Source of the DNA: Spirochaetia bacterium UBA5763
Lineage (GTDB): Bacteria > Spirochaetota > UBA4802 > UBA5550
Assembly: GCA_002418835.1 (NCBI GenBank)
Contig: DIEX01000034.1
Location: 225,926 to 289,925 of the forward strand
Length of the DNA stretch: 64,000 nucleotides
Direction of reading: 5' to 3'
Below are positions 1-9,277 of this stretch, piece by piece. The notes under the pieces were generated by a model, which was not told the origin of the DNA, ran no database searches, and saw nothing but the letters and a program-made list of their open reading frames with translations. How positions within the stretch are numbered: position 1 is the first letter of the stretch; every line of letters starts with the position of its first letter. A program made the translations under genes and the position numbers.

Positions 1-2
1 AT

Positions 3-1298
3 GTGAGGCAGGAGCTTTTATCTGAATCTAAGGATTACTTCCAGAAGCATTATAAAACATTTCAGGGGACTGCTGACCTTTATGTCTGTTTTATGGAGAA
101 GGGTTATAACCTTTTAAGAGAGGGCGGGCTTTTTAGCTATATTGTTGCAAACAAGTGGATGCGGGCAAACTACGCGAAGAGTTTAAGGGATTGGCTGTCG
201 AAGAAAGATATTGTTGAGATAATTGATTTCGGTGATCTCCCGGTGTTTCAGCAGGCAACGACATATCCATGTATTTTCTGTATAAGGAAGGGTGAGCCAT
301 CTGGTAAGTTATCAGCGGTGAATGTTGATGATCTGAATTTCAGTTCGCTTGGGGAATATGTAAAAGATAAAAAATTTGATATAGAGCAGGGGAGGCTGTC
401 AGTAGACGGGTGGCACCTGACAAATACAGCGGAGCTTGATCTCCTTGAGAAGATTAAAAGCAAAGGTGTGCCTCTTGAGCAGTATGTTGAAGGGAAGATT
501 TTTTACGGTATAAAGACCGGTTTCAATGAAGCCTTTGTAATAGATGAAGAGACAAAGAACAGGCTTATTGCCGAAGACCCGAAAAGTGCAGAGATTATAA
601 AACCTTTTCTTGCAGGGAGAGATATTAAGAGGTATGCGCCGCTTGAAACAGGAAAAAATTTAATTTTAATTCCGCGTGGATGGACAAAAGCAAATGGCGG
701 TAATGATAAAAACGCATGGAGCATTTTATCGGGAAAGTATCCGGCAGTTGCAAATTACCTGAACCAGTATGAAGAGCCGTGTTTAAAGAGATATGATAAA
801 GGTGATTACTGGTGGGAGTTGCGAGCCTGTGATTATTATGATGAGTTTGAGAAAGAGAAGATAATATATCCTAATATTTTAAAGAAGCCTGAATTTACTT
901 TTGATGAAGAAGCATTATACACAAATCAAAAGTGTTTTATAATGCCTACAAATAATAAATATTTACTTGGTATATTAAATTCGAGTATTACTTTTTTTCT
1001 TTTTAGACAGCTACTACCTAAGCTACGTGGTGATTTCTATGAGCCAAGCTATATCTATTTCAAAACTTTTCCGATTAAACAGATCTCTGATGATAAAAGA
1101 GATATTGAATTAAAAGATAAAATAATCAACTCTGTTGATTCAATGCTTGAATCCCAGAAACAACTACAATCCGCAAAAACAGACTCCGATAGAAAAATTT
1201 TTCACCAGAAGATCGATGCCATTGATAAGCAGATAGATCTCCTTGTGTATGAACTGTACGGGCTTTCTGAGGATGAGATTAAGATTGTGGAGGGGTAA
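3..1298 (+). CDS. C-terminal fragment of a type IIG / Eco57I-family N6-adenine DNA methyltransferase-restriction enzyme with a TaqI-like target-recognition region. The N-terminus lies outside the window.
   Basis: The ORF runs in from the window edge. The sequence resembles C-terminal regions of Eco57I/MmeI-like and BREX PglX-like methyltransferases. No catalytic NPPY motif is visible in this fragment, so it is the specificity part. Confidence 0.45.
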   Translation: MRQELLSESKDYFQKHYKTFQGTADLYVCFMEKGYNLLREGGLFSYIVANKWMRANYAKSLRDWLSKKDIVEIIDFGDLPVFQQATTYPCIFCIRKGEPSGKLSAVNVDDLNFSSLGEYVKDKKFDIEQGRLSVDGWHLTNTAELDLLEKIKSKGVPLEQYVEGKIFYGIKTGFNEAFVIDEETKNRLIAEDPKSAEIIKPFLAGRDIKRYAPLETGKNLILIPRGWTKANGGNDKNAWSILSGKYPAVANYLNQYEEPCLKRYDKGDYWWELRACDYYDEFEKEKIIYPNILKKPEFTFDEEALYTNQKCFIMPTNNKYLLGILNSSITFFLFRQLLPKLRGDFYEPSYIYFKTFPIKQISDDKRDIELKDKIINSVDSMLESQKQLQSAKTDSDRKIFHQKIDAIDKQIDLLVYELYGLSEDEIKIVEG

Positions 1299-1305
1299 CC
1301 TCACA

Positions 1306-1469
1306 GACCTCACCCCCAGCCCCTCTCCTCGAGGAGAGGAGTGACTGTGGCAGAATTTTTTTGCTGGTATAAAAATTTTTTAAAATAAAAAGATTTTGAT
1401 CGTATCCATAAGTATAGGATTCTAATTCCCTCTTCTCATTGAGGAGAAGGGGGTTAGGGGGATGAGGTC
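1306..1469. repeat. Copy 1 of a ~165 bp palindromic repeat element. It has 13 bp terminal inverted repeats (GACCTCAtCCCCC / GGGGGATGAGGTC) and internal sub-terminal hairpins (CCCTTCTCC...GGAGAAGGG). It is MITE-like or attC-like.
   Basis: Direct comparison with the second copy at 1852-2017 shows roughly 90% identity in the same orientation. Each copy is itself an imperfect palindrome. Confidence 0.7.
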
Positions 1470-1472
1470 AAA

Positions 1473-1844
1473 ATGGCAGAAAAAAGTATAACACGTAATC
1501 AACGGGTTTCATCAGTTAAAGTTGAACTTTCCCGTGAATTGCGTAAGGGAATGACCGAAGCTGAGAATGTTTTCTGGGATATGGTCAGGGACAGGAGAAT
1601 GTTCGGTCTGAAATTCAGGAGGCAGCAGATTATTGATGGCTTCATTGTTGATTTTTACTGCGACAGCCTGGGACTGTGTATTGAGATTGATGGTGGTGTT
1701 CATGATACTGATAAACAACAGGAGTATGACAGGTTAAGATCCGAGGCTCTTGAGTTGAGGAAACTGAAGATTATGCGGTTTAGGAATGAAGAGGTACTGA
1801 ATGATATTGATTCGGTCAAAGCAATGATTTTTGAATTGATGTAA
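1473..1844 (+). CDS. DUF559 (Vsr/restriction-endonuclease-like fold) domain protein
   Basis: The 123 aa product carries characteristic DUF559 motifs (GLKFRRQQ...DGFIVDFYC...LCIEIDGGVHD...D...R...L...G..V.RF). It sits exactly between the two repeat copies. Confidence 0.7.
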   Translation: MAEKSITRNQRVSSVKVELSRELRKGMTEAENVFWDMVRDRRMFGLKFRRQQIIDGFIVDFYCDSLGLCIEIDGGVHDTDKQQEYDRLRSEALELRKLKIMRFRNEEVLNDIDSVKAMIFELM

Positions 1845-1851
1845 TCTTTTA

Positions 1852-2017
1852 GACCTCATCCCCCGGCCCCTTCTCCACATGGAGAAGGGGAGGTTGTGGC
1901 AGAATTTTTTTGCTGATATAAAAATTTTTTAAAATAAAAAGATTTGATCGTATCCATAAATACAGGATTATAATTCCCTCTTCTCATTGAGGAGAAGGGG
2001 GTTAGGGGGATGAGGTC
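1852..2017. repeat. Copy 2 of the ~165 bp palindromic repeat element
   Basis: Near-identical to 1306-1469, including the TIRs and the internal AT-rich core (TGGCAGAATTTTTTTGCTG.TATAAAAATTTTTTAAAATAAAAAGATTT). Confidence 0.7.
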
Positions 2018-2022
2018 ACTAT

Positions 2023-2365
2023 ATGAATGATATCAGAAGAGCAATAAGTATCCGTCAGCCATTTGTTGAAGCTATCCTTGATGGTAAAAAGAAAATTGAA
2101 TACAGATCACGAAAAACCAATATCAGGGAACGTGTTTATATATACGCGAGTCTTGGTATGCGTGAAGAAGAAGATTTTAAAAGAGTTCGGGTATTATTCG
2201 GATAAATGTCCGCGCGGTGTAATTGTAGGCACAGTGGAGATTGTTGATTGTACCGGTGTTGAAGGTGATTATGAAATTCATCTTGCTAATCCTGAAAGAC
2301 TGGAAACATTCCTGAAGCCGGTCAATCAGCCGCAGCCGATGTTCTGGATTCCGCAGTTTGAATAA
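2023..2365 (+). pseudogene. ASCH-domain (PUA-like) protein, apparently frameshifted near 2200
   Basis: Two overlapping ORFs (2023-2205 and 2063-2365) in different frames together give an ASCH-like sequence (IRQPFVEAILDGKKKIEYRSR...GVIVGTVEIVDC). This is either a disrupted gene or a sequencing error. Confidence 0.4.
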
Positions 2366-2570: not shown

Positions 2571-3794
2571 TTGCCAGATATTTATGATGAGGTGACTACT
2601 TTGCTTGAAATGTTTTCTATGGCAGCCGTTTGGCTGGCACTGGCCGTTGTGTCTACAGTACTGGCAAACCGTCTTAAGATTTCCATGGCTCTTATGGAAA
2701 TATGTATTGGTGCAGTGGCAGGATATGCCGCAACCACTTTTATAAGCCCCGATTTTTTCAAAGCCGATTCGGGATGGATTAAGTTCATTGCAGGAACCGG
2801 CGCCGTTCTTCTGACGTTCCTTGCCGGAGCTGAACTTGATTCAGCTTCAATGAAAAGAAAAATCAGTGAAGTCTCAGTTGTGGGGCTCATAGGTTTTCTT
2901 GCGCCATTTATAGGGTGCTCTCTGCTTGCTTATTATATCCTTTCCTGGAATCTGCAGGCCAGCCTTCTTACAGGTATAGCATTGTCCACAACTTCAATGG
3001 CAGTGGTTTATGCAGTAATGCTTGAATATGGATTCAATAAAACTGAATATGGCAAGGGGATACTTGGAGCATGTTTTGTGAATGACCTTGGTACTGTTAT
3101 AGCACTGGGTCTGATCTTTTCACCGTTCACCTATAAAACAGTGGTGTTTATTGTGGTATGCTTAGTTGTATTTTTTGCACTGCCGAAAATGACGGCAAGG
3201 CTTACGAGGATATATGAGAATAACACCGCTGCAATCAGGACTAAATGGATAGTTTTTATTCTCTGCGCCCTGGGAGCCCTCGCGCTCTGGTCCGGGAGTG
3301 AGGCTGTTCTCCCTGCGTATATTGCCGGTATGGTGCTTGCTGACAGTGTAGGTAAAGATGAATCTTTTCTTCACAGGATGCGTACGCTGACAATAGGGTT
3401 TCTTACTCCATTTTATTTTCTACGGGCAGGTTTGCTGGTTTCAATTCCTGCAATTATGGCAGCGCCGATGGTATTTTTTATACTTCTTGCAGGGAAAGTG
3501 GTTTCTAAAATATTCGGGCTTTACCCTGTAATTGGAGTGTTCCGTGAAACAAAAAAAGAGCGCTGGTATTATACCCTTATGATGTCCACAGGGCTTACCT
3601 TTGGATCGATCTCCGCGCTGTTTGGATTAACTCATGGCATAGTTGACAGGGGGCAGTATTCGTTCCTTATTGCCGCTGTTATCGGGAGCGCGGTAGTGCC
3701 TACTATTATCGCGAACCTTGCGTTTCTCCCGTCGCATCTTCTTCACGCGCCTCTTGCTGATGAAGAGCTGCCGCAGCTTGATTTAATTGACTGA
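2571..3794 (+). CDS. Cation:proton antiporter (CPA / Na+/H+ exchanger family) membrane protein
   Basis: The product is polytopic and hydrophobic throughout, with typical Na+/H+ exchanger family sequence features. The true start may be slightly downstream (GAGGTGA-N5-TTG at about 2600). Na+/H+ antiporters are a known gene class under fluoride riboswitch control. Confidence 0.75.
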   Translation: MPDIYDEVTTLLEMFSMAAVWLALAVVSTVLANRLKISMALMEICIGAVAGYAATTFISPDFFKADSGWIKFIAGTGAVLLTFLAGAELDSASMKRKISEVSVVGLIGFLAPFIGCSLLAYYILSWNLQASLLTGIALSTTSMAVVYAVMLEYGFNKTEYGKGILGACFVNDLGTVIALGLIFSPFTYKTVVFIVVCLVVFFALPKMTARLTRIYENNTAAIRTKWIVFILCALGALALWSGSEAVLPAYIAGMVLADSVGKDESFLHRMRTLTIGFLTPFYFLRAGLLVSIPAIMAAPMVFFILLAGKVVSKIFGLYPVIGVFRETKKERWYYTLMMSTGLTFGSISALFGLTHGIVDRGQYSFLIAAVIGSAVVPTIIANLAFLPSHLLHAPLADEELPQLDLID

Positions 3795-3903
3795 TTCATA
3801 CTCCTTCATACCGGTTTTCTGTAGAGAATACCGGTATGACGCAACATCTGCTTTGAAATAATTCTTGCCAAAAATTATCCGTATAATAATATAAACCATC
3901 TTC

Positions 3904-3953
3904 GGGGATGGAGTTCCCCCTTGTAACCGCTTTTAGAAGCTGATGACTCCTGC
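3904..3953 (+). promoter_or_regulatory. Fluoride riboswitch (crcB RNA motif) in the 5' leader of the dynamin-like GTPase gene
   Basis: The sequence GGGGAUGGAGUUCCCCCUUGUAACCGCUUUUAGAAGCUGAUGACUCCUGC is near-identical to the 2467-2516 copy. The loop hairpin shows covariation (GCUUCAGAAAGC versus GCUUUUAGAAGC), and a U-A pair in the downstream stem becomes U-G. A TTGCCA-N16-TAATAT promoter lies upstream. Confidence 0.85.
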
Positions 3954-4042
3954 ATTGCAATATCAACGCGAGGCAGGTTTATCCTGAAAATAAAAAACCG
4001 CGCCGGTATTGCTGAATAAACTTTAAATGCAGGTGAATTATA

Positions 4043-5791
4043 ATGCTCCCGGCAGAATATATTGAAAGAGCAATGGATCTTGTTAAAGATTCCGGAGATA
4101 AATATTGCAGTATACACGATTCCCTTTCAGGCCTTAATGAACGTCTGAATGAGGGGAGGTTCCACCTTGCGGTTCTTGGACAGTTCAAGAGAGGTAAGAG
4201 CACTCTGCTTAATGCGCTACTTGGAGAGGAGCTGCTCCCGGGGGCTATACTCCCTGTAACTGCAATCCCCACATTTATATACTCCGGCGCTGAACATAGG
4301 GTGCACGTCACATTTAACGATAATACTGAAACAGATTTCTCTTCCGGTGATGTATCTGAAATCAACAGATATCTTGATGAGCATGTCTCAGAGGAGAAGA
4401 ACCCTGAGAACACCAGGGGGATTAAGAATGTTGAACTCTATACGCCTGCCCCGGTTCTGCGTAACGGCCTTGTACTCATAGATACACCGGGCATAGGTTC
4501 AACACACAGGCACAACACAGAAGTGACAATGAATTTCCTTGAAGAGTGTGATGCCGCCCTTTTTGTGTTTTCACCTGACCCCCCTGTGACTGAAGCTGAA
4601 CTTGATTTTCTGAAGCAGGTCAGGACCCGCGTTAAGAAGATAATATTTGTGCTGAATAAAGCTGACCTTCTCTCCGAAGAGGAGATTGTTAAAATAAGCG
4701 GTTTTATTAAAAGCGTACTTTATGAAAAGAGCGGTGTAGATCTCTCTGAGGATATCTTCACTCTCTCCGCAAAAAGCGGTCTCAATGCCGCAAAAACCGG
4801 TGATAATGATAAATGGAATCTGTCAGGCATGGACAGGCTCCGCACCTATCTCTCAGGCTTTCTTGTAAAGGAGAAGGGGGAGGTTTTGCTTAAAGCTGTA
4901 TCCTTAAAAGCTGTTAATATTCTCTCGGAGTTTTCCATGCGTCTGCATCTTGAGGCCCGGGCACTGGAGCTCCCTGTTGATGATCTTAAAAGAAGAGCTG
5001 AACTTTTCAGAAAAAAAATTGAAGAGGCAATGACGCGGAGAGAGGAGACCGGGGATATACTTAAAGGGGACAGGAAGAGGCTCCTTGATATACTTGATGT
5101 ACAGTCTAAAAAGCTTCATGAAAGGACTACACTTTATCTGAATGAAATCCTTGATAAGAATATAAAAAGCGGCAGTAAGCTCTCTGAAAACCGTATACGC
5201 GAGGAGTTTGCGCTCTCCATACCGCCATTTTTTGAACATGAATTAAAAGAGGTTTCAAAATACTTCAGTGACGCTGTATCCGAGAGGATGACAGTTCATG
5301 AGAAGAGGGCTGCAGATCTCATTGATGAGGTTAAGTCTGCTGCTGCTGATATTTTTGAGATACCTTATGAACGGTCTGATGAAAAAATAGTACTCATTGA
5401 AAACCGTAAACCCTACTGGGTAAAACATAACTGGAGCGCCTCCTTTATACCTGTGCCTGATGATCTTGTTGACGCGCTTCTCCCCCGGAAGATGCTTATT
5501 AAAAAGATCACCAGGAATATGCAGCGCCTTGCTAAAGACCTCGCAACAGGTAATGTTGAAAACCTCAGCTGGGTTACACTTCAGAACCTTGATGATACTT
5601 TCAGGAAGTTTACAGGTGAATTTGATAACAAGCTGAAAGCGGCTATTGAAGCTACAGAGGGAGCCCTCCTTGAGGCAATGAAGAGGAGCAATGAGCAGGA
5701 AACCGGATCTGCTGCTGAACTGGATGATCTAAAAAAGAGAATTGAATCTGTGACAGAACTGACTTCCGGACTCAAGAGGCATTCACTTTAA
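4043..5791 (+). CDS. Dynamin-family large GTPase (bacterial dynamin-like protein)
   Basis: The N-terminal GTPase carries G1 GQFKRGKST, G3 DTPGIG and G4 NKAD motifs. The C-terminal ~350 aa are helical. An AGGTGA RBS sits 6 nt before the ATG. Confidence 0.75.
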   Translation: MLPAEYIERAMDLVKDSGDKYCSIHDSLSGLNERLNEGRFHLAVLGQFKRGKSTLLNALLGEELLPGAILPVTAIPTFIYSGAEHRVHVTFNDNTETDFSSGDVSEINRYLDEHVSEEKNPENTRGIKNVELYTPAPVLRNGLVLIDTPGIGSTHRHNTEVTMNFLEECDAALFVFSPDPPVTEAELDFLKQVRTRVKKIIFVLNKADLLSEEEIVKISGFIKSVLYEKSGVDLSEDIFTLSAKSGLNAAKTGDNDKWNLSGMDRLRTYLSGFLVKEKGEVLLKAVSLKAVNILSEFSMRLHLEARALELPVDDLKRRAELFRKKIEEAMTRREETGDILKGDRKRLLDILDVQSKKLHERTTLYLNEILDKNIKSGSKLSENRIREEFALSIPPFFEHELKEVSKYFSDAVSERMTVHEKRAADLIDEVKSAAADIFEIPYERSDEKIVLIENRKPYWVKHNWSASFIPVPDDLVDALLPRKMLIKKITRNMQRLAKDLATGNVENLSWVTLQNLDDTFRKFTGEFDNKLKAAIEATEGALLEAMKRSNEQETGSAAELDDLKKRIESVTELTSGLKRHSL

Positions 5792-7733: not shown

Positions 7734-9277
7734 GTTTTAATCCGTTCAATAAGAGAATTATATGTGAGGCCGTATTTCTCCGAAATTGACATGGCATAGG
7801 CAAGGCCGTCTGCGGGTCTTCTTGATATTTTAAATGTACGGATTTCCGGCGCATCAGGATCTACGCTGCTCACCATGCTCACCGTTGATTCACTGTATTC
7901 TGAAAGTTCATCAACAAATGTTATCCATACACAGATGAGATCCAGTGAGTTTATCCTCTCCATGATCTTTCCGCTTAAGAATACCGCATCATGAAGTGTT
8001 GTGGATGTGAATATTTCATTCATAATAATTATGCTGCGGGTAGTCGCCCGGCTGAGAAAATCTTCGATCCTTATAAGGTCATCCTGAAGTTTTCCACGCA
8101 GATCACTTATATTCTCCCCCTTCTCAAAATGAGTGAATATATCGTCAAAGAGATAAAGGCGCGCTTCTCTCCCCGGTACAGTGAGGCCCAGTGATCCGAT
8201 ATAATGTATCTGCCCGAAGTCACGGGCAAATGTTGTCTTTCCACCCTGGTTGGGCCCTGATACCACTATTATGCGCTCTTTACCTGTAAGATAGAAATCA
8301 TTGCATACAACAGGCATATTCTCTTTACTCAGCTTATGGGCAAGAGCGAGATCAAACCCGGCATGACAGTGAATGTTTTTTGAGGAAGCGGAAAACTCCG
8401 GATAGCAGAAAGCGAAGCCTGTATTCTTCATCTTCGCAATATAATCGAGCCAGGAGATATAAAACTGGATCTCCCTGGCGAAACTGATTATCCCGCTGTC
8501 CATGAAATCATTGTTATTGATTGAAAATTCATGCAGGTTGTAGAATACTCCAGGCCGGAGCTTTGCCACGCAATCCATTATCCTGGCTTCAATATGGTTC
8601 ATCCCTAAGGGAATAGTAACTTTTGACAGGTATTTACGGCTTTCGCCACGGGTAAACCTGGAGAAGAGTTCCTTTATCTCGGTACTATAGTCCTTTTCAC
8701 CTTTATACTTGCGGACAGTTACCTTTTCATTTTTTATCTCAATTAAATACTGTATTGAAGATATATCGCTTTTTAATTTAAGAGCTTCGGAATGAATCGA
8801 TGTAAAGTCAGGAGATTGAACATAGTGTGTCAGATACTCCCTGAATTTCAGCAGGCCATTTGATTTTAAATCAGCACGCAGCAGATCCTTTTCAAGTGAT
8901 ATTACTGCGTCACAATAAACTATAACTGCTTCAAGAAACCACCCCTCTCTGTGGAGCATAAAATTAAGTTTTTCAATCATACGGATATAGCGGCGAACAG
9001 TGGATATACTGTGGGCAAAGGATTTTAAATCCTCAAAGAGAGTACCATGCTCTATATCCTTTGCAGCCTCCTGCCTATATAGAATTGTTTCAATGTCGGG
9101 AGCAGGGGTATAAAAAAAAGGTTTAAGATTGTACTCCTCTTTCCCTGAAATTACAGAGTTTACAATCCGGTCAAGGTTAAGATCAGTGAAGCATGGAGGT
9201 TCTTTGCTGATCTTATTATTATCTTCAAAATTATCTTTGTATAAAATACTGCTGTAAAACATTACTGCTGTACTCAT
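7730..9277 (-). CDS. MutS domain V family ATPase, paralogue of the 6237-7733 gene
   Basis: Walker A motif GPNQGGKTTFARDFG. The architecture matches its downstream neighbour, and the two genes are translationally coupled. Confidence 0.7.
   Translation of the reverse strand: MSTAVMFYSSILYKDNFEDNNKISKEPPCFTDLNLDRIVNSVISGKEEYNLKPFFYTPAPDIETILYRQEAAKDIEHGTLFEDLKSFAHSISTVRRYIRMIEKLNFMLHREGWFLEAVIVYCDAVISLEKDLLRADLKSNGLLKFREYLTHYVQSPDFTSIHSEALKLKSDISSIQYLIEIKNEKVTVRKYKGEKDYSTEIKELFSRFTRGESRKYLSKVTIPLGMNHIEARIMDCVAKLRPGVFYNLHEFSINNNDFMDSGIISFAREIQFYISWLDYIAKMKNTGFAFCYPEFSASSKNIHCHAGFDLALAHKLSKENMPVVCNDFYLTGKERIIVVSGPNQGGKTTFARDFGQIHYIGSLGLTVPGREARLYLFDDIFTHFEKGENISDLRGKLQDDLIRIEDFLSRATTRSIIIMNEIFTSTTLHDAVFLSGKIMERINSLDLICVWITFVDELSEYSESTVSMVSSVDPDAPEIRTFKISRRPADGLAYAMSISEKYGLTYNSLIERIKT

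Follow-up and report, generated by a model that had tools for sequence, protein, structure and literature searches.

The window analysed here is a 64,000-nt stretch of DNA from Spirochaetia bacterium UBA5763. Near its start, a small gene of the DUF559 family lies between two copies of a 165-bp palindromic element, E1 and E2, with a restriction-modification (RM) gene upstream and an ASCH-domain gene downstream. The features of the locus, in window coordinates, are:

1..1298, + strand: 3' part of the RM gene, 431 aa, with Pfam Eco57I, TaqI_C and MmeI_TRD
1298..1305, + strand: partial duplicate of a module tail, ACCTCACA, directly after the RM stop codon (TAA, 1296-1298)
1306..1469, + strand: element copy 1 (E1), comprising left module, AT-rich core and right module
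1306..1342, - strand: E1 left module, CTCCTCTCC-TCGA-GGAGAGGGG-CTG-GGGGTGAGG, a BoxC/PIT/TM-type triplex motif
1395..1422, + strand: conserved core block in E1, TTTGATCGTATCCATAAGTATAGGATTC
1429..1469, + strand: E1 right module, CCCTCTTCTC-ATTGAG-GAGAAGGGGG-TTA-GGGGGATGAG(GTC), a triplex motif
1473..1844, + strand: DUF559 gene, 123 aa, PF04480 (E = 1.4e-31), Vsr-like PD-(D/E)XK endonuclease fold
1852..2017, + strand: element copy 2 (E2), with left module 1852-1890, core block 1943-1970 and right module 1977-2017
2023..2365, + strand: ASCH-domain gene, apparently frameshifted, seen as ORFs 2023-2205 and 2063-2365; PF04266 matches the 60-aa ORF at E = 1.9e-5

The elements proved to be built much as an earlier note on this DNA had described them. 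They are direct copies, 90.5% identical over 169 aligned positions, and this identity is mosaic, the left ~45 nt agreeing at ~76% and the core and right end at ~96%. Each copy forms a long imperfect palindrome, with a DNA minimum free energy of -32.7 kcal/mol for E1 and -38.7 kcal/mol for E2 (z = -5.1 and -7.1, respectively; none of 200 shuffles folded equally well). Copy 2 has a perfect 13-bp terminal inverted repeat, and copy 1 the same repeat with two mismatches in its left arm (GACCTCACCCCCA); both also show the sub-terminal hairpins and an AT-rich core, and the DUF559 ORF fits between the elements with gaps of just 3 nt (1470-1472) and 7 nt (1845-1851). The core block is subfamily-specific, being kept in both window elements (W_E1 and W_E2) and at loci L005, L013 and L019 and absent from L008 and L144, and is a candidate promoter or protein-binding site. 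No element copies beyond E1 and E2 were found in the 64-kb window, and no further full-length copies within 74 kb of the same genome; these 74 kb hold five modules, all at one locus rather than dispersed.

The junctions between elements and genes are equally tight. The right tail of E1 holds a Shine-Dalgarno-like GAGG (1464-1467) ahead of the DUF559 ATG at 1473, and the GAGGTC-N3-8-ATG spacing is repeated in L005, L008, L013, L144 and L145. The ATG of the ASCH gene lies 5 nt past the tail of E2, making the same GAGG its putative ribosome-binding site. Full-length homologues of E1 stand directly 5' of DUF559 in L005, L013, L022 and L023, and ACCTCAY direct repeats bracket the E-DUF559 unit both in the window and in L005. 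At the upstream boundary, the tail duplicate at 1298..1305 is possibly a remnant of an older junction between the RM stop codon and a module tail; the RM gene of both L008 and L144 stops at a TGA that overlaps the beginning of the element (TGACCTCA).

The RM gene itself, contrary to what the earlier note had supposed, is not truncated: the window edge alone cuts a complete 1075-aa gene of the MmeI/Eco57I type (type IIG), which is present in full at L001 6599-9826 (parent contig JGI 3300002219 SCADCLC_10014265, 421,789 bp). The data agree with the frameshift proposed for the ASCH gene: the 60-aa ORF at 2023-2205 covers profile positions 1-37, and the remainder lies in another frame; two gene callers each call a different half. 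Within 10 kb on either side are a Kdp operon, enolase and MutS2-type genes.

The DUF559 protein matches its Pfam family at 109 bits, against a gathering cut-off of 20.6, and also matches PDB 3HRL (E = 6.7e-15) and the homing endonuclease I-Bth0305I (3R3P, E = 0.005). D60, E71 and H77 do not vary among 20 homologues, at least 90% of which keep D73; 321 homologues were found at E <= 1e-10, and a search of viral contigs returned no relatives of the window DUF559 clade. I-Bth0305I, Vsr and 3HRL share their catalytic fold and clan with the window protein, and all four are small, single-domain and plausibly selfish. Unlike these relatives, the window gene has no intron or intein context, and neither I-Bth0305I nor Vsr is known for structured repeats at its flanks.

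Judging from its sequence, each 165-bp element very probably represents an inverted pair of BoxC/PIT/TM intrastrand-triplex units set around the AT-rich core. Every unit opens with a pyrimidine arm and a loop, continues with the complementary purine arm and a ~3-nt spacer, and closes with a G-rich tail in which the purine arm is mirrored; in both units the third strand of the triplex is very probably what the earlier note took for a terminal inverted repeat. These repeats are described in an established literature (Bachellier et al., 1990s; Hoyne, Maher et al. 2000; Holder et al. 2015, PMC4666352), in which a TM is defined by a pyrimidine arm, a Watson-Crick purine arm and a mirror G-rich block, with a stem of 6-15 nt and loops of 1-6 nt (Holder et al. 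2015, PMC4666352). The four window modules fit this definition, with arms of 9-11 nt, 8-10 Watson-Crick pairs, 9-10 allowed triads and spacers of 1-3 nt, and a strict sequence-agnostic triplex finder run over the 64 kb returned these four and nothing else. Across 110 foreign modules, triads occupy 92% of positions, as against 68% with a shuffled tail, and the type of the tail co-varies with that of the arm (132 concordant and 4 discordant cases; Fisher p = 7e-12). Moreover, a covariance model (R1) seeded with 16 modules of fixed geometry, all from foreign genomes, matches exactly the four element ends in the window: the E1 left module at 34.3 bits (E = 1.1e-7; 8/9 Watson-Crick pairs, 9/9 triads), the E1 right module at 33.7 bits (E = 1.6e-7; 9/10 pairs, 10/10 triads), and the E2 modules at 52.7 bits (left) and 33.7 bits (right).

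In E. coli, the module has its relative in TM_ECO/BoxC. The E. coli TM reads CCCTCTCCC...GGGAGAGGG-TTA-GGGTGAGGG and the window module CCCTCTTCTC...GAGAAGGGGG-TTA-GGGGGATGAGG; the window modules thus resemble the TM consensus CCCTCTCCC-N-GGGAGAGGG-TTA/CCG-GGGTGAGGG (Table 1, PMC4666352), and sequence intermediates between the two occur in the flanks of E. coli ycjD and at no fewer than 120 genome loci. Both have the same blocks with a TTA- or CCG-type spacer, stand alone or in 'tandem inverted' pairs, and combine a wide distribution with strong conservation. In contrast to the E. coli TM, the pair described here encloses a conserved AT-rich core of ~85 nt, the whole unit is doubled around a gene, and copies also lie in frame inside genes, whereas E. 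coli TMs were reported as always intergenic (PMC4666352). Physical formation of the triplex, as followed by CD, NMR or DMS footprinting, has been shown for the E. coli sequence only (PMC4666352). The consensus of whalefall-1 (RF01762), CUCUCC-loop-GGAGAG ... AGGGUGAGGAC, also resembles the module; this family was introduced as a candidate sRNA seen in metagenomes only (Weinberg et al. 2010, PMC2864571). Its best match, at 1306-1342(-), scores 23.5 bits, below the gathering score of 37 bits, and 18 module-rich loci gave no match at gathering level. Identity with an Rfam family was rejected: none reached its gathering score, and the microRNA matches merely reflect palindromy.

Beyond the window, at least 120 genome stretches from many phyla contain the ~40-nt module, where ~6 would be expected by chance on our own estimate (drawn from database size and the information content of the pattern). 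Its contexts are diverse: it stands solo, in inverted pairs of 55-172 nt (at ~30 of 100 loci), in tandem arrays, and in frame inside genes, and nested insertions were seen in L004, L016 and L162. A metagenome scan with the 29-nt right end yielded 11 loci, the parent contig not among them. Copies of the 165-bp unit, 77-80% identical, accompany DUF559 in neighbourhoods unrelated to this one; the repeat-gene-repeat arrangement also recurs, and in L144 it extends to (element-DUF559)x2-element, a tandem E-D-E-D-E. The RM gene of the window carries one of the in-frame copies, a solo module that lies 55-94 nt ahead of the window start, immediately preceding NPPY (L001 8434-8473), and that is an insertion relative to ~105 of 120 homologues; other RM homologues have independent module-like insertions in the same loop, and further in-frame modules lie in PNKP and 2Fe-2S proteins. 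In this they recall the Rickettsia palindromic elements (RPE), which Ogata and colleagues are said to have described in 2000 as inserted in frame without destroying genes. Both are palindromic and sit in frame inside genes; RPEs differ in that their sequence is unrelated and their host range different, and they are not known to have an associated nuclease gene or a triplex block.

As for the manner of insertion, inspection of 42 unit boundaries gave no consistent target-site duplication; the adjoining bases are often a T before and an A after the unit, or extend the palindrome. The genome represented by L162, which is related, has the orthologous RM gene and lacks E-D-E, with an unrelated downstream flank; a clean empty site for the unit was not found. 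At sapF-ycjD-fabI of E. coli, a candidate empty site for ycjD was rejected: the partial-match genomes (38%) carry a TetR/RND island there, with its junction 41 nt from TM #9.

We next consider the company that the motif keeps. Modules adjoin DUF559 at every locus that we sampled through the protein (L005, L008 and L144-L149 among them), and distant homologues of 33-48% identity are flanked as well, in Synechocystis, Deinococcus, Azospirillum, Pseudanabaena, Sphingomonas and E. coli (ycjD), by motifs whose sequence is lineage-specific; in E. coli, ycjD and TM #9 of Holder et al. are separated by 168 nt. The strict finder placed a motif within 200 nt of DUF559 in 11 of 18 loci, the motifs at the seven it missed being judged by eye or from weak model matches, and gave a motif density of 1.25 per kb near DUF559 versus 0.10 per kb elsewhere; the sample of DUF559 loci is small, and its closer homologues are not mutually independent. 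Approached from the opposite side, 4 of 120 motif-selected loci carry DUF559, all at 16-116 nt from a motif. Such a proportion is expected if one gene serves many repeats, and fits independence of the motif from DUF559 equally well. Among 150 ORFs flanking motifs, no family occurred more than twice, DUF559 was the only small recurrent one, and neither transposases nor integrases were enriched.

Two layouts recur. In one, the gene lies inside a single inverted pair (L-DUF559-R: L033, L053, L141, L146, L149, L151, L152 and L158), and in the other, that of the window, it lies between two complete units ([L-core-R]-DUF559-[L-core-R]). By its organisation, L-DUF559-R is like a tiny IS, and the gene-less pairs look like non-autonomous derivatives of it; the ends that the two have in common make for a classic autonomous/non-autonomous pattern. 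Taken together, these observations incline us, with some reserve, to the view that DUF559 genes across bacteria are flanked by triplex motifs and form one recurrent unit with them. The repeat family is already known, and the link to DUF559 is apparently the new point: we found no description of it in open-access papers and preprints, and Holder et al. (PMC4666352), who report no mobility genes, do not mention DUF559 either, in contrast to its consistent presence here.

The overall explanation that we favour, with a confidence that we would call evenly balanced, is that triplex-repeat pairs and DUF559 operate as one unit resembling RAYT/REP. REP/REPIN sequences are short, GC-rich hairpins that carry an unpaired tail of conserved sequence and are dispersed both singly and in inverted pairs, and each family has one small nuclease gene, a RAYT, which itself lies between inverted repeat copies. 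The two systems are alike in that the nuclease gene is flanked by inverted hairpin repeats, which also occur as inverted doublets, and these features argue for a REP/RAYT-like way of working rather than for membership of that family. They differ in the enzyme (a Vsr-like PD-(D/E)XK fold for DUF559, an HUH/Y1, IS200-like transposase for RAYT), in the third, triplex-forming block of the present repeat, and in its conservation across phyla, whereas REPs are species-specific.

A tentative mechanism can be outlined on this basis. DUF559, as a nuclease of the Vsr/I-Bth0305I kind, might recognise the structured motif and nick or cut at or near it; recombination repair or template switching between motif copies could then spread both the motifs and the cassette, and the same repair route might be the source of the reported local instability of the motif. 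Recombination between flanking direct copies could generate the E-D-E and (E-D)n-E arrays. The right tail may act as a ribosome-binding site, which the left tail would pair with and mask in read-through transcripts. A system of this kind would therefore work like RAYT/REP with another enzyme fold, and would not be an integron. Since a PD-(D/E)XK nuclease is by itself incapable of strand transfer, dispersal to new sites would need host functions.

Several other readings have to be weighed against this one. We give real weight to, while considering unlikely, a passive association in which fragile, recombination-prone motifs spread by a host process independent of DUF559 (for instance slippage during replication, or template switching where triplexes block the polymerase), with DUF559 as a free-standing selfish gene of the homing-endonuclease kind that targets the motifs, or is retained at them, and mobilises nothing. 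TMs stall polymerase in vitro, mark unstable loci and have no mobility genes nearby in E. coli (Holder et al., PMC4666352), DUF559 is absent within 8 kb of 116 of the 120 motif loci, and it is related to a homing endonuclease, I-Bth0305I; the gene sits exactly at the element boundaries (GAGGTC-N3-ATG ... stop-N7-GACCTC), and other small repeats are inserted at the same RM loop. However, the flanking motif varies with the lineage of DUF559 (Deinococcus, cyanobacterial, enterobacterial and GACCTCA types), a tracking that suggests co-evolution rather than opportunistic landing; moreover, L-DUF559-R units and gene-less pairs have common ends, and no other selfish gene family was found at motif sites. 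We see only a slim chance that the palindromes are cis-regulatory, serving as a 5' leader that carries a ribosome-binding site with fold-back masking, as an mRNA stabiliser or as a terminator or insulator, with E1 and E2 arising from local tandem duplication and no mobility. The constant spacing of GAGG from the ATG, 3-8 nt for DUF559 at several loci and 5 nt for ASCH, would suit such a role, as would the predicted fold, in which the left tail pairs with the right and masks the Shine-Dalgarno sequence, and the conserved core block, which could be an operator or promoter. It is harder to reconcile with modules that also stand alone in many contexts, form tandem arrays or lie in frame within genes unrelated to each other, or with tails that face away from the gene in the L-DUF559-R layout; neither sigma-70-type promoters on the + strand of the element, its core included, nor terminator patterns rose above background, and Maher et al., as cited in the introduction of Holder et al. 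(PMC4666352), found PIT elements to have no promoter or terminator activity.

It seems slightly more improbable still that DUF559 is a defence-island accessory, for example a Vsr-like repair or effector nuclease, that partners N6-adenine methyltransferases, type IIG restriction or BREX/DISARM-like systems, the repeats being incidental. DUF559 does lie directly 3' of MmeI-type RM genes in the window, L008 and L144, with the element starting 0-8 nt from the RM stop, and other copies adjoin PglX (L151) and DUF1156 methylase genes (L152 and L153). Yet at roughly two in three of the DUF559 loci sampled the neighbours are neither RM nor defence genes (they include argS, the pntA/pntB operon, hpa genes and sapF/fabI), the orthologous RM gene in L162 stands without DUF559, and the motifs are left unexplained. 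A single inherited RM-DUF559 locus was rejected as the source of the RM association, the three RM genes being merely 25-40% identical to one another. The MITE-like reading of the earlier note holds in part: the units form a dispersed palindromic family of less than 200 bp with inverted ends, no coding capacity and long-hairpin folding, and pairs of 55-172 nt look MITE-like as well. What separates them from MITEs is the lack of a target-site duplication at any of the 42 boundaries in consistent form and ends that are set by triplex geometry. We therefore hold it very improbable that they are classical MITEs, that is, non-autonomous derivatives of an IS with a DDE transposase, with DUF559 captured between two insertions: no parent IS with the same ends and a transposase was found, DUF559 being the only gene between matching ends; no transposase is enriched near the motifs, nor was any reported by Holder et al. 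(PMC4666352); and DUF559 recurs between or inside units in distant phyla. As for the integron-like array that the earlier note offered as its other reading, with attC sites flanking promoterless cassettes, its chances are next to nil. An imperfect palindrome at cassette boundaries, the single-orientation ORF-repeat-ORF-repeat order and the doubled arrangement of L144 do recall attC arrays; integrons, however, have intI, attI, R''/R' cores and an array of diverse cassettes. Here, no integrase family is represented among the genes called within 10 kb on either side, nor is there an attI in that range, and the 64 kb hold two elements, with four modules in all, among housekeeping genes. The element ends, GACCTCAYCCCC and GGGGRTGAGGTC (GACCTCA...TGAGGTC), do not have the form RYYYAAC...GTTRRRY, with no RYYYAAC at the left end, and the GTTAGGG that had been likened to an attC R' core has G at the Y position, is internal, and is accounted for by the TTA spacer and the G-run of the triplex motif. 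Furthermore, the repeat belongs to another, documented family, and the 'cassette' is always of the same gene family.

Returning to the triplex-repeat and DUF559 unit, the practical message for the window is that it contains no integron and no resistance-cassette structure. BoxC/PIT/TM repeats have been known since the 1990s, rank among the most conserved bacterial non-coding repeats and mark unstable loci; the association makes DUF559 a candidate enzyme partner for them. By analogy with RAYT/REP, it is conceivable, if doubtful at present, that DUF559 proteins, including E. coli YcjD, are dedicated nucleases of these repeats and constitute with them a pan-bacterial selfish or domesticated system. 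In that case, a Vsr-fold enzyme recognising an intrastrand triplex or hairpin would drive the spread of the repeat, its in-frame insertion and genome instability, and the element-DUF559-element block of the window would be an 'autonomous' copy of such a system. A real link would account for the small in-frame 'PSP...GEG' inserts of many proteins, as well as for the N- and C-terminal extensions of mis-called DUF559 ORFs. DUF559 is a very large family, and a consistent association would hand both it and the repeat a testable function, for which E. coli, with ycjD and 23 TM copies, offers a direct test ground. If the link is real, it would represent a second nuclease-repeat partnership of the RAYT/REP type, built on a different enzyme fold and a non-B DNA structure.

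The DUF559 gene at 1473-1844 (PF04480, E = 1.4e-31) lies between two copies of a ~165-bp element, E1 (1306-1469) and E2 (1852-2017), from which it is separated by 3 and 7 nt, just as the earlier note had described. BLAST and global alignment place the copies in direct orientation at 90.5% identity, again in line with that note (~90%); the identity is uneven, at ~76% over the left ~45 nt and ~96% over the core and right end. Each copy is indeed a long imperfect palindrome that folds far better than its shuffled versions (z = -5.1 and -7.1), the left and right tails pairing in the predicted fold. The 13-nt terminal inverted repeat proposed for both holds exactly in E2 and carries two mismatches in the left arm of E1. 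No further element copy was found in the 64 kb window. The right tail places GAGG 5 nt ahead of the DUF559 ATG, and likewise ahead of that of the downstream ASCH gene (3-8 nt from tail end to ATG), which does look frameshifted, as claimed. The upstream restriction-modification (RM) gene had been taken for truncated; in the parent contig (421,789 bp, hydrocarbon-degrading culture metagenome) it is a complete 1075-aa gene of MmeI/Eco57I type, and only the window edge cuts it. Short direct repeats of tail sequence occur around the element-DUF559 unit, both in the window (ACCTCAC/ACCTCAT at 1298-1304, 1307-1313 and 1853-1859) and in a close-homologue locus, L005 (the 9-mer ACCTCATCC at 2792-2800 and 3381-3389); they may represent a duplicated target, a recombination core or what is left of older modules. 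Neighbours within ±10 kb include the Kdp operon, enolase and MutS2-type genes, and two fluoride riboswitches, which account for a 79-nt direct repeat (2462-2540 / 3899-3977):

2458-2522, + strand: fluoride riboswitch (RF01734, 56 or 55.5 bits) upstream of a Na+/H+-exchanger-family gene (2571-3794)
3895-3959, + strand: fluoride riboswitch (RF01734, 56 or 55.5 bits) upstream of a dynamin-family GTPase gene (4043-5791), an unusual gene for riboswitch control

The ends of E1 and E2 are very probably motifs of a known repeat, named BoxC in the 1990s, PIT element from 2000 and triplex motif (TM) from 2015 (Holder et al. 2015, PMC4666352). In a TM, the purine arm of a hairpin leads, across a ~3-nt spacer, into a G-rich block mirroring that arm; as a single strand the motif forms an intrastrand triplex in vitro. 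TMs, single or in 'tandem inverted' pairs, are known from >260 genomes and mark unusually rearranged loci; Holder et al. found neither a function nor a mobility gene for them (PMC4666352). Each of the four window modules shows 9-10 allowed triads over 9-11 positions, and triads occur at 92% of positions in 110 foreign modules, compared with 68% when the tail is shuffled. Because this geometry holds in the window modules, the 'terminal inverted repeat' is the triplex third strand, and GTTAGGG is spacer plus tail start. In the window variant the pyrimidine arm carries one additional T, and the tail is altered to match; across genomes, arm and tail states were concordant in 132 cases and discordant in 4 (p = 7e-12), a figure to which common descent of subfamilies contributes. 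In modules outside the DNA-pattern selection, pairing in the hairpin reaches 96.6%, conservation of the hairpin being mostly at the sequence level, with compensatory change in three pairs only.

Scanning species-representative genomes for the end pattern GACCTCAYCCCC-N1-6-CCCYTCTCC returned at least 120 genome stretches, where by our own estimate ~6 were expected by chance. Among the matches listed were Chloroflexota, Bacteroidota, Cyanobacteria, Myxococcota, Planctomycetota, Acidobacteriota, Gemmatimonadota, Patescibacteria, Spirochaetota, Bacillota and others, and the second hairpin arm, which lies outside the search pattern, was present in 121 of the 143 listed. Conservation of the module ends abruptly at GACCTC. 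With a covariance model seeded with 16 foreign modules, the 64 kb window gave four hits, one at each end of E1 and of E2 (E <= 1.6e-7), and no others. Inverted module pairs (units of 55-172 nt) were seen at ~30 of 100 loci, alongside solo modules and tandem arrays:

L078 4915-5552 and L135 349-1000: tandem module arrays, with a 120-nt period (at least 6 units, Deltaproteobacteria MAG) or a 202-nt period (4 units)

The earlier note had read the arrangement as either a MITE-flanked cassette or part of an integron-like array, citing GTTAGGG as reminiscent of an attC R' core, which the triplex geometry reassigns. There is no integrase within ±10 kb and no array, and the ends are without attC core sequences; the evidence also speaks against a classical MITE, as 42 unit boundaries showed no consistent target-site duplication and the 150 ORFs flanking the motif no transposase enrichment. 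The window element arranges a known repeat in a new way and is neither a new kind of element nor an integron.

DUF559 homologues 72-80% identical to that of the window sit in very different gene neighbourhoods. At L004-L007, L013/L020 and L022/L023 the full element (77-80% identity) stops 3 nt ahead of the DUF559 ATG. The downstream side varies, from a full second element in the window to GACCTCATCC only at L005 and the right-end hairpin only at L008, while the order at L144 is element-DUF559-element-DUF559-element, where the next element shares its first base with the stop codon. Two layouts recur: the gene inside an inverted module pair, and the gene between a full element and a second one or part thereof.

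Modules adjoin the gene in every DUF559 locus that was sampled via the protein rather than the motif. These include close homologues (L005, L008, L144-L149) and distant ones (33-48% identity) from named isolates: Synechocystis plasmids, Deinococcus proteolyticus, Azospirillum, Pseudanabaena, Picosynechococcus, Sinorhizobium, Sphingomonas, Neisseria and E. coli. In distant lineages the motif sequence is other and the anatomy constant (C-rich tail, GC hairpin, mirror block); in D. proteolyticus, near-perfect ~50-nt inverted ends enclose the gene. A strict sequence-agnostic triplex finder placed a motif within 200 nt of DUF559 in 11 of 18 loci (1.25 per kb near DUF559, 0.10 per kb elsewhere), the seven it missed having degenerate motifs, judged by eye or by weak model hits. 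Approached from the motif, only four DUF559 genes occur among the 120 motif-selected loci listed, all 16-116 nt from the motif; the 150 flanking ORFs represent 133 Pfam families, none seen more than two times, and DUF559 is the sole recurring small family.

TM #9 of Holder et al. (PMC4666352) lies 168 nt from ycjD, the E. coli DUF559 gene; the last codons of ycjD (LSPSPQPSP*) run into another degenerate module, and modules very close to the window type follow the gene. Such reading into a module explains the 'PSP..GEG..GVRS' extensions of mis-called DUF559 ORFs. Both in Holder et al. (PMC4666352) and in the related G-quadruplex paper, ycjD, DUF559 and endonucleases of any kind go unmentioned, and no DUF559-motif link was found in later open-access papers and preprints. 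At L157, ~20 nt upstream of the ycjD start, there is also a perfect 19-bp-stem palindrome (1135-1181, TCACCTCATTCTGACAAGA-N7-TCTTGTCAGAATGAGGTGA), the outer bases of which (CACCTCAT/ATGAGGTG) resemble the window element tails (GACCTCAT/ATGAGGTC). In ~38% of complete E. coli genomes, the fabI-ycjD region (L160/L161) loses its homology to K-12 at 41 nt before TM #9, fabI being followed there by a TetR/RND-efflux island, in keeping with the instability that has been reported around TM sites.

Adjacency of DUF559 to N6-adenine methyltransferase and defence genes is recurrent. The gene follows three MmeI-type RM genes (window 1-1298, L008 1-2824, L144 1-353) that are mutually 25-40% identical, each ending ...I(V/I)EG, with the element beginning 0-8 nt from the stop; in plasmid copies (L151-L153) it adjoins PglX (BREX) or DUF1156 genes. 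On a Sphingomonas parapaucimobilis plasmid (L159), DUF559 (1189-1584) has GC hairpins on both sides and looks like an insertion into an NAD(P) transhydrogenase operon, between the alpha and the next subunit gene.

That modules move is indicated by insertions within genes. The window's RM gene carries a solo module in frame in its Eco57I methylase domain (L001, the window locus with upstream DNA, 8434-8473; 55-94 nt before window position 1), reading …FKTSPPGPLSSKEMGGKA… immediately before NPPY. Of 120 homologues, ~105 are without this insertion; at the same loop, several others have independent module-like inserts, and some hold a different small repeat, translating as SLRGTKQS. In the orthologous RM gene of L162 (77% nucleotide identity) the module occupies this site too (8056-8160), interrupted by a nested 65-nt palindrome (GTCGAGCGC...GCGCTCGAC) that disrupts the gene; homology of L162 to the window locus ends at the RM stop, after which there is neither element nor DUF559. 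Whereas E. coli TM copies were reported as always intergenic (PMC4666352), inverted module pairs lie in frame inside real genes at four loci, and short sequences are nested in modules at others:

L085 1077-1218: in-frame pair, PNKP metallophosphatase domain
L118 1412-1497: in-frame pair between two 2Fe-2S domains (Fer2, Fer2_2) of a dehydrogenase subunit
L073 3088-3208: in-frame pair, linker of an NTPase-FGE-sulfatase protein
L084 842-1006: in-frame pair, membrane glycosyltransferase-like ORF
L016 1484-1574: nested short sequence, in the tail-hairpin gap or just past the hairpin
L004 2775-2870 (versus L005 2833-2869): nested short sequence, in the tail-hairpin gap or just past the hairpin

Motif identity, unit architecture, DUF559 association and insertion polymorphisms are observed, and on balance we lean towards DUF559 and the motifs forming a functional unit. 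DUF559 has the conserved residues D60/E71/D73/H77 and is related by sequence to the DUF559 structure 3HRL and the homing endonuclease I-Bth0305I. It may recognise the structured motif and cut it, after which motifs and cassette would spread through repair of the break or through template switching from one motif copy to another; recombination between flanking copies would yield element-DUF559-element units and longer arrays of the same alternation. Host recombination would be required, because a PD-(D/E)XK nuclease alone cannot join DNA. As a whole, we offer this mechanism tentatively, as possible and somewhat less likely than not. The main rival holds that the motifs spread by themselves, DUF559 being a homing-type parasite of motif sites or merely tolerated there; against it, the match between gene and flanking motif is lineage-specific, which in a small sample argues for a cognate pair.

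The interest of the element lies in the candidate protein partner that it suggests for the BoxC/PIT/TM repeats and in the candidate function that it suggests for DUF559, both of which are testable in E. coli.
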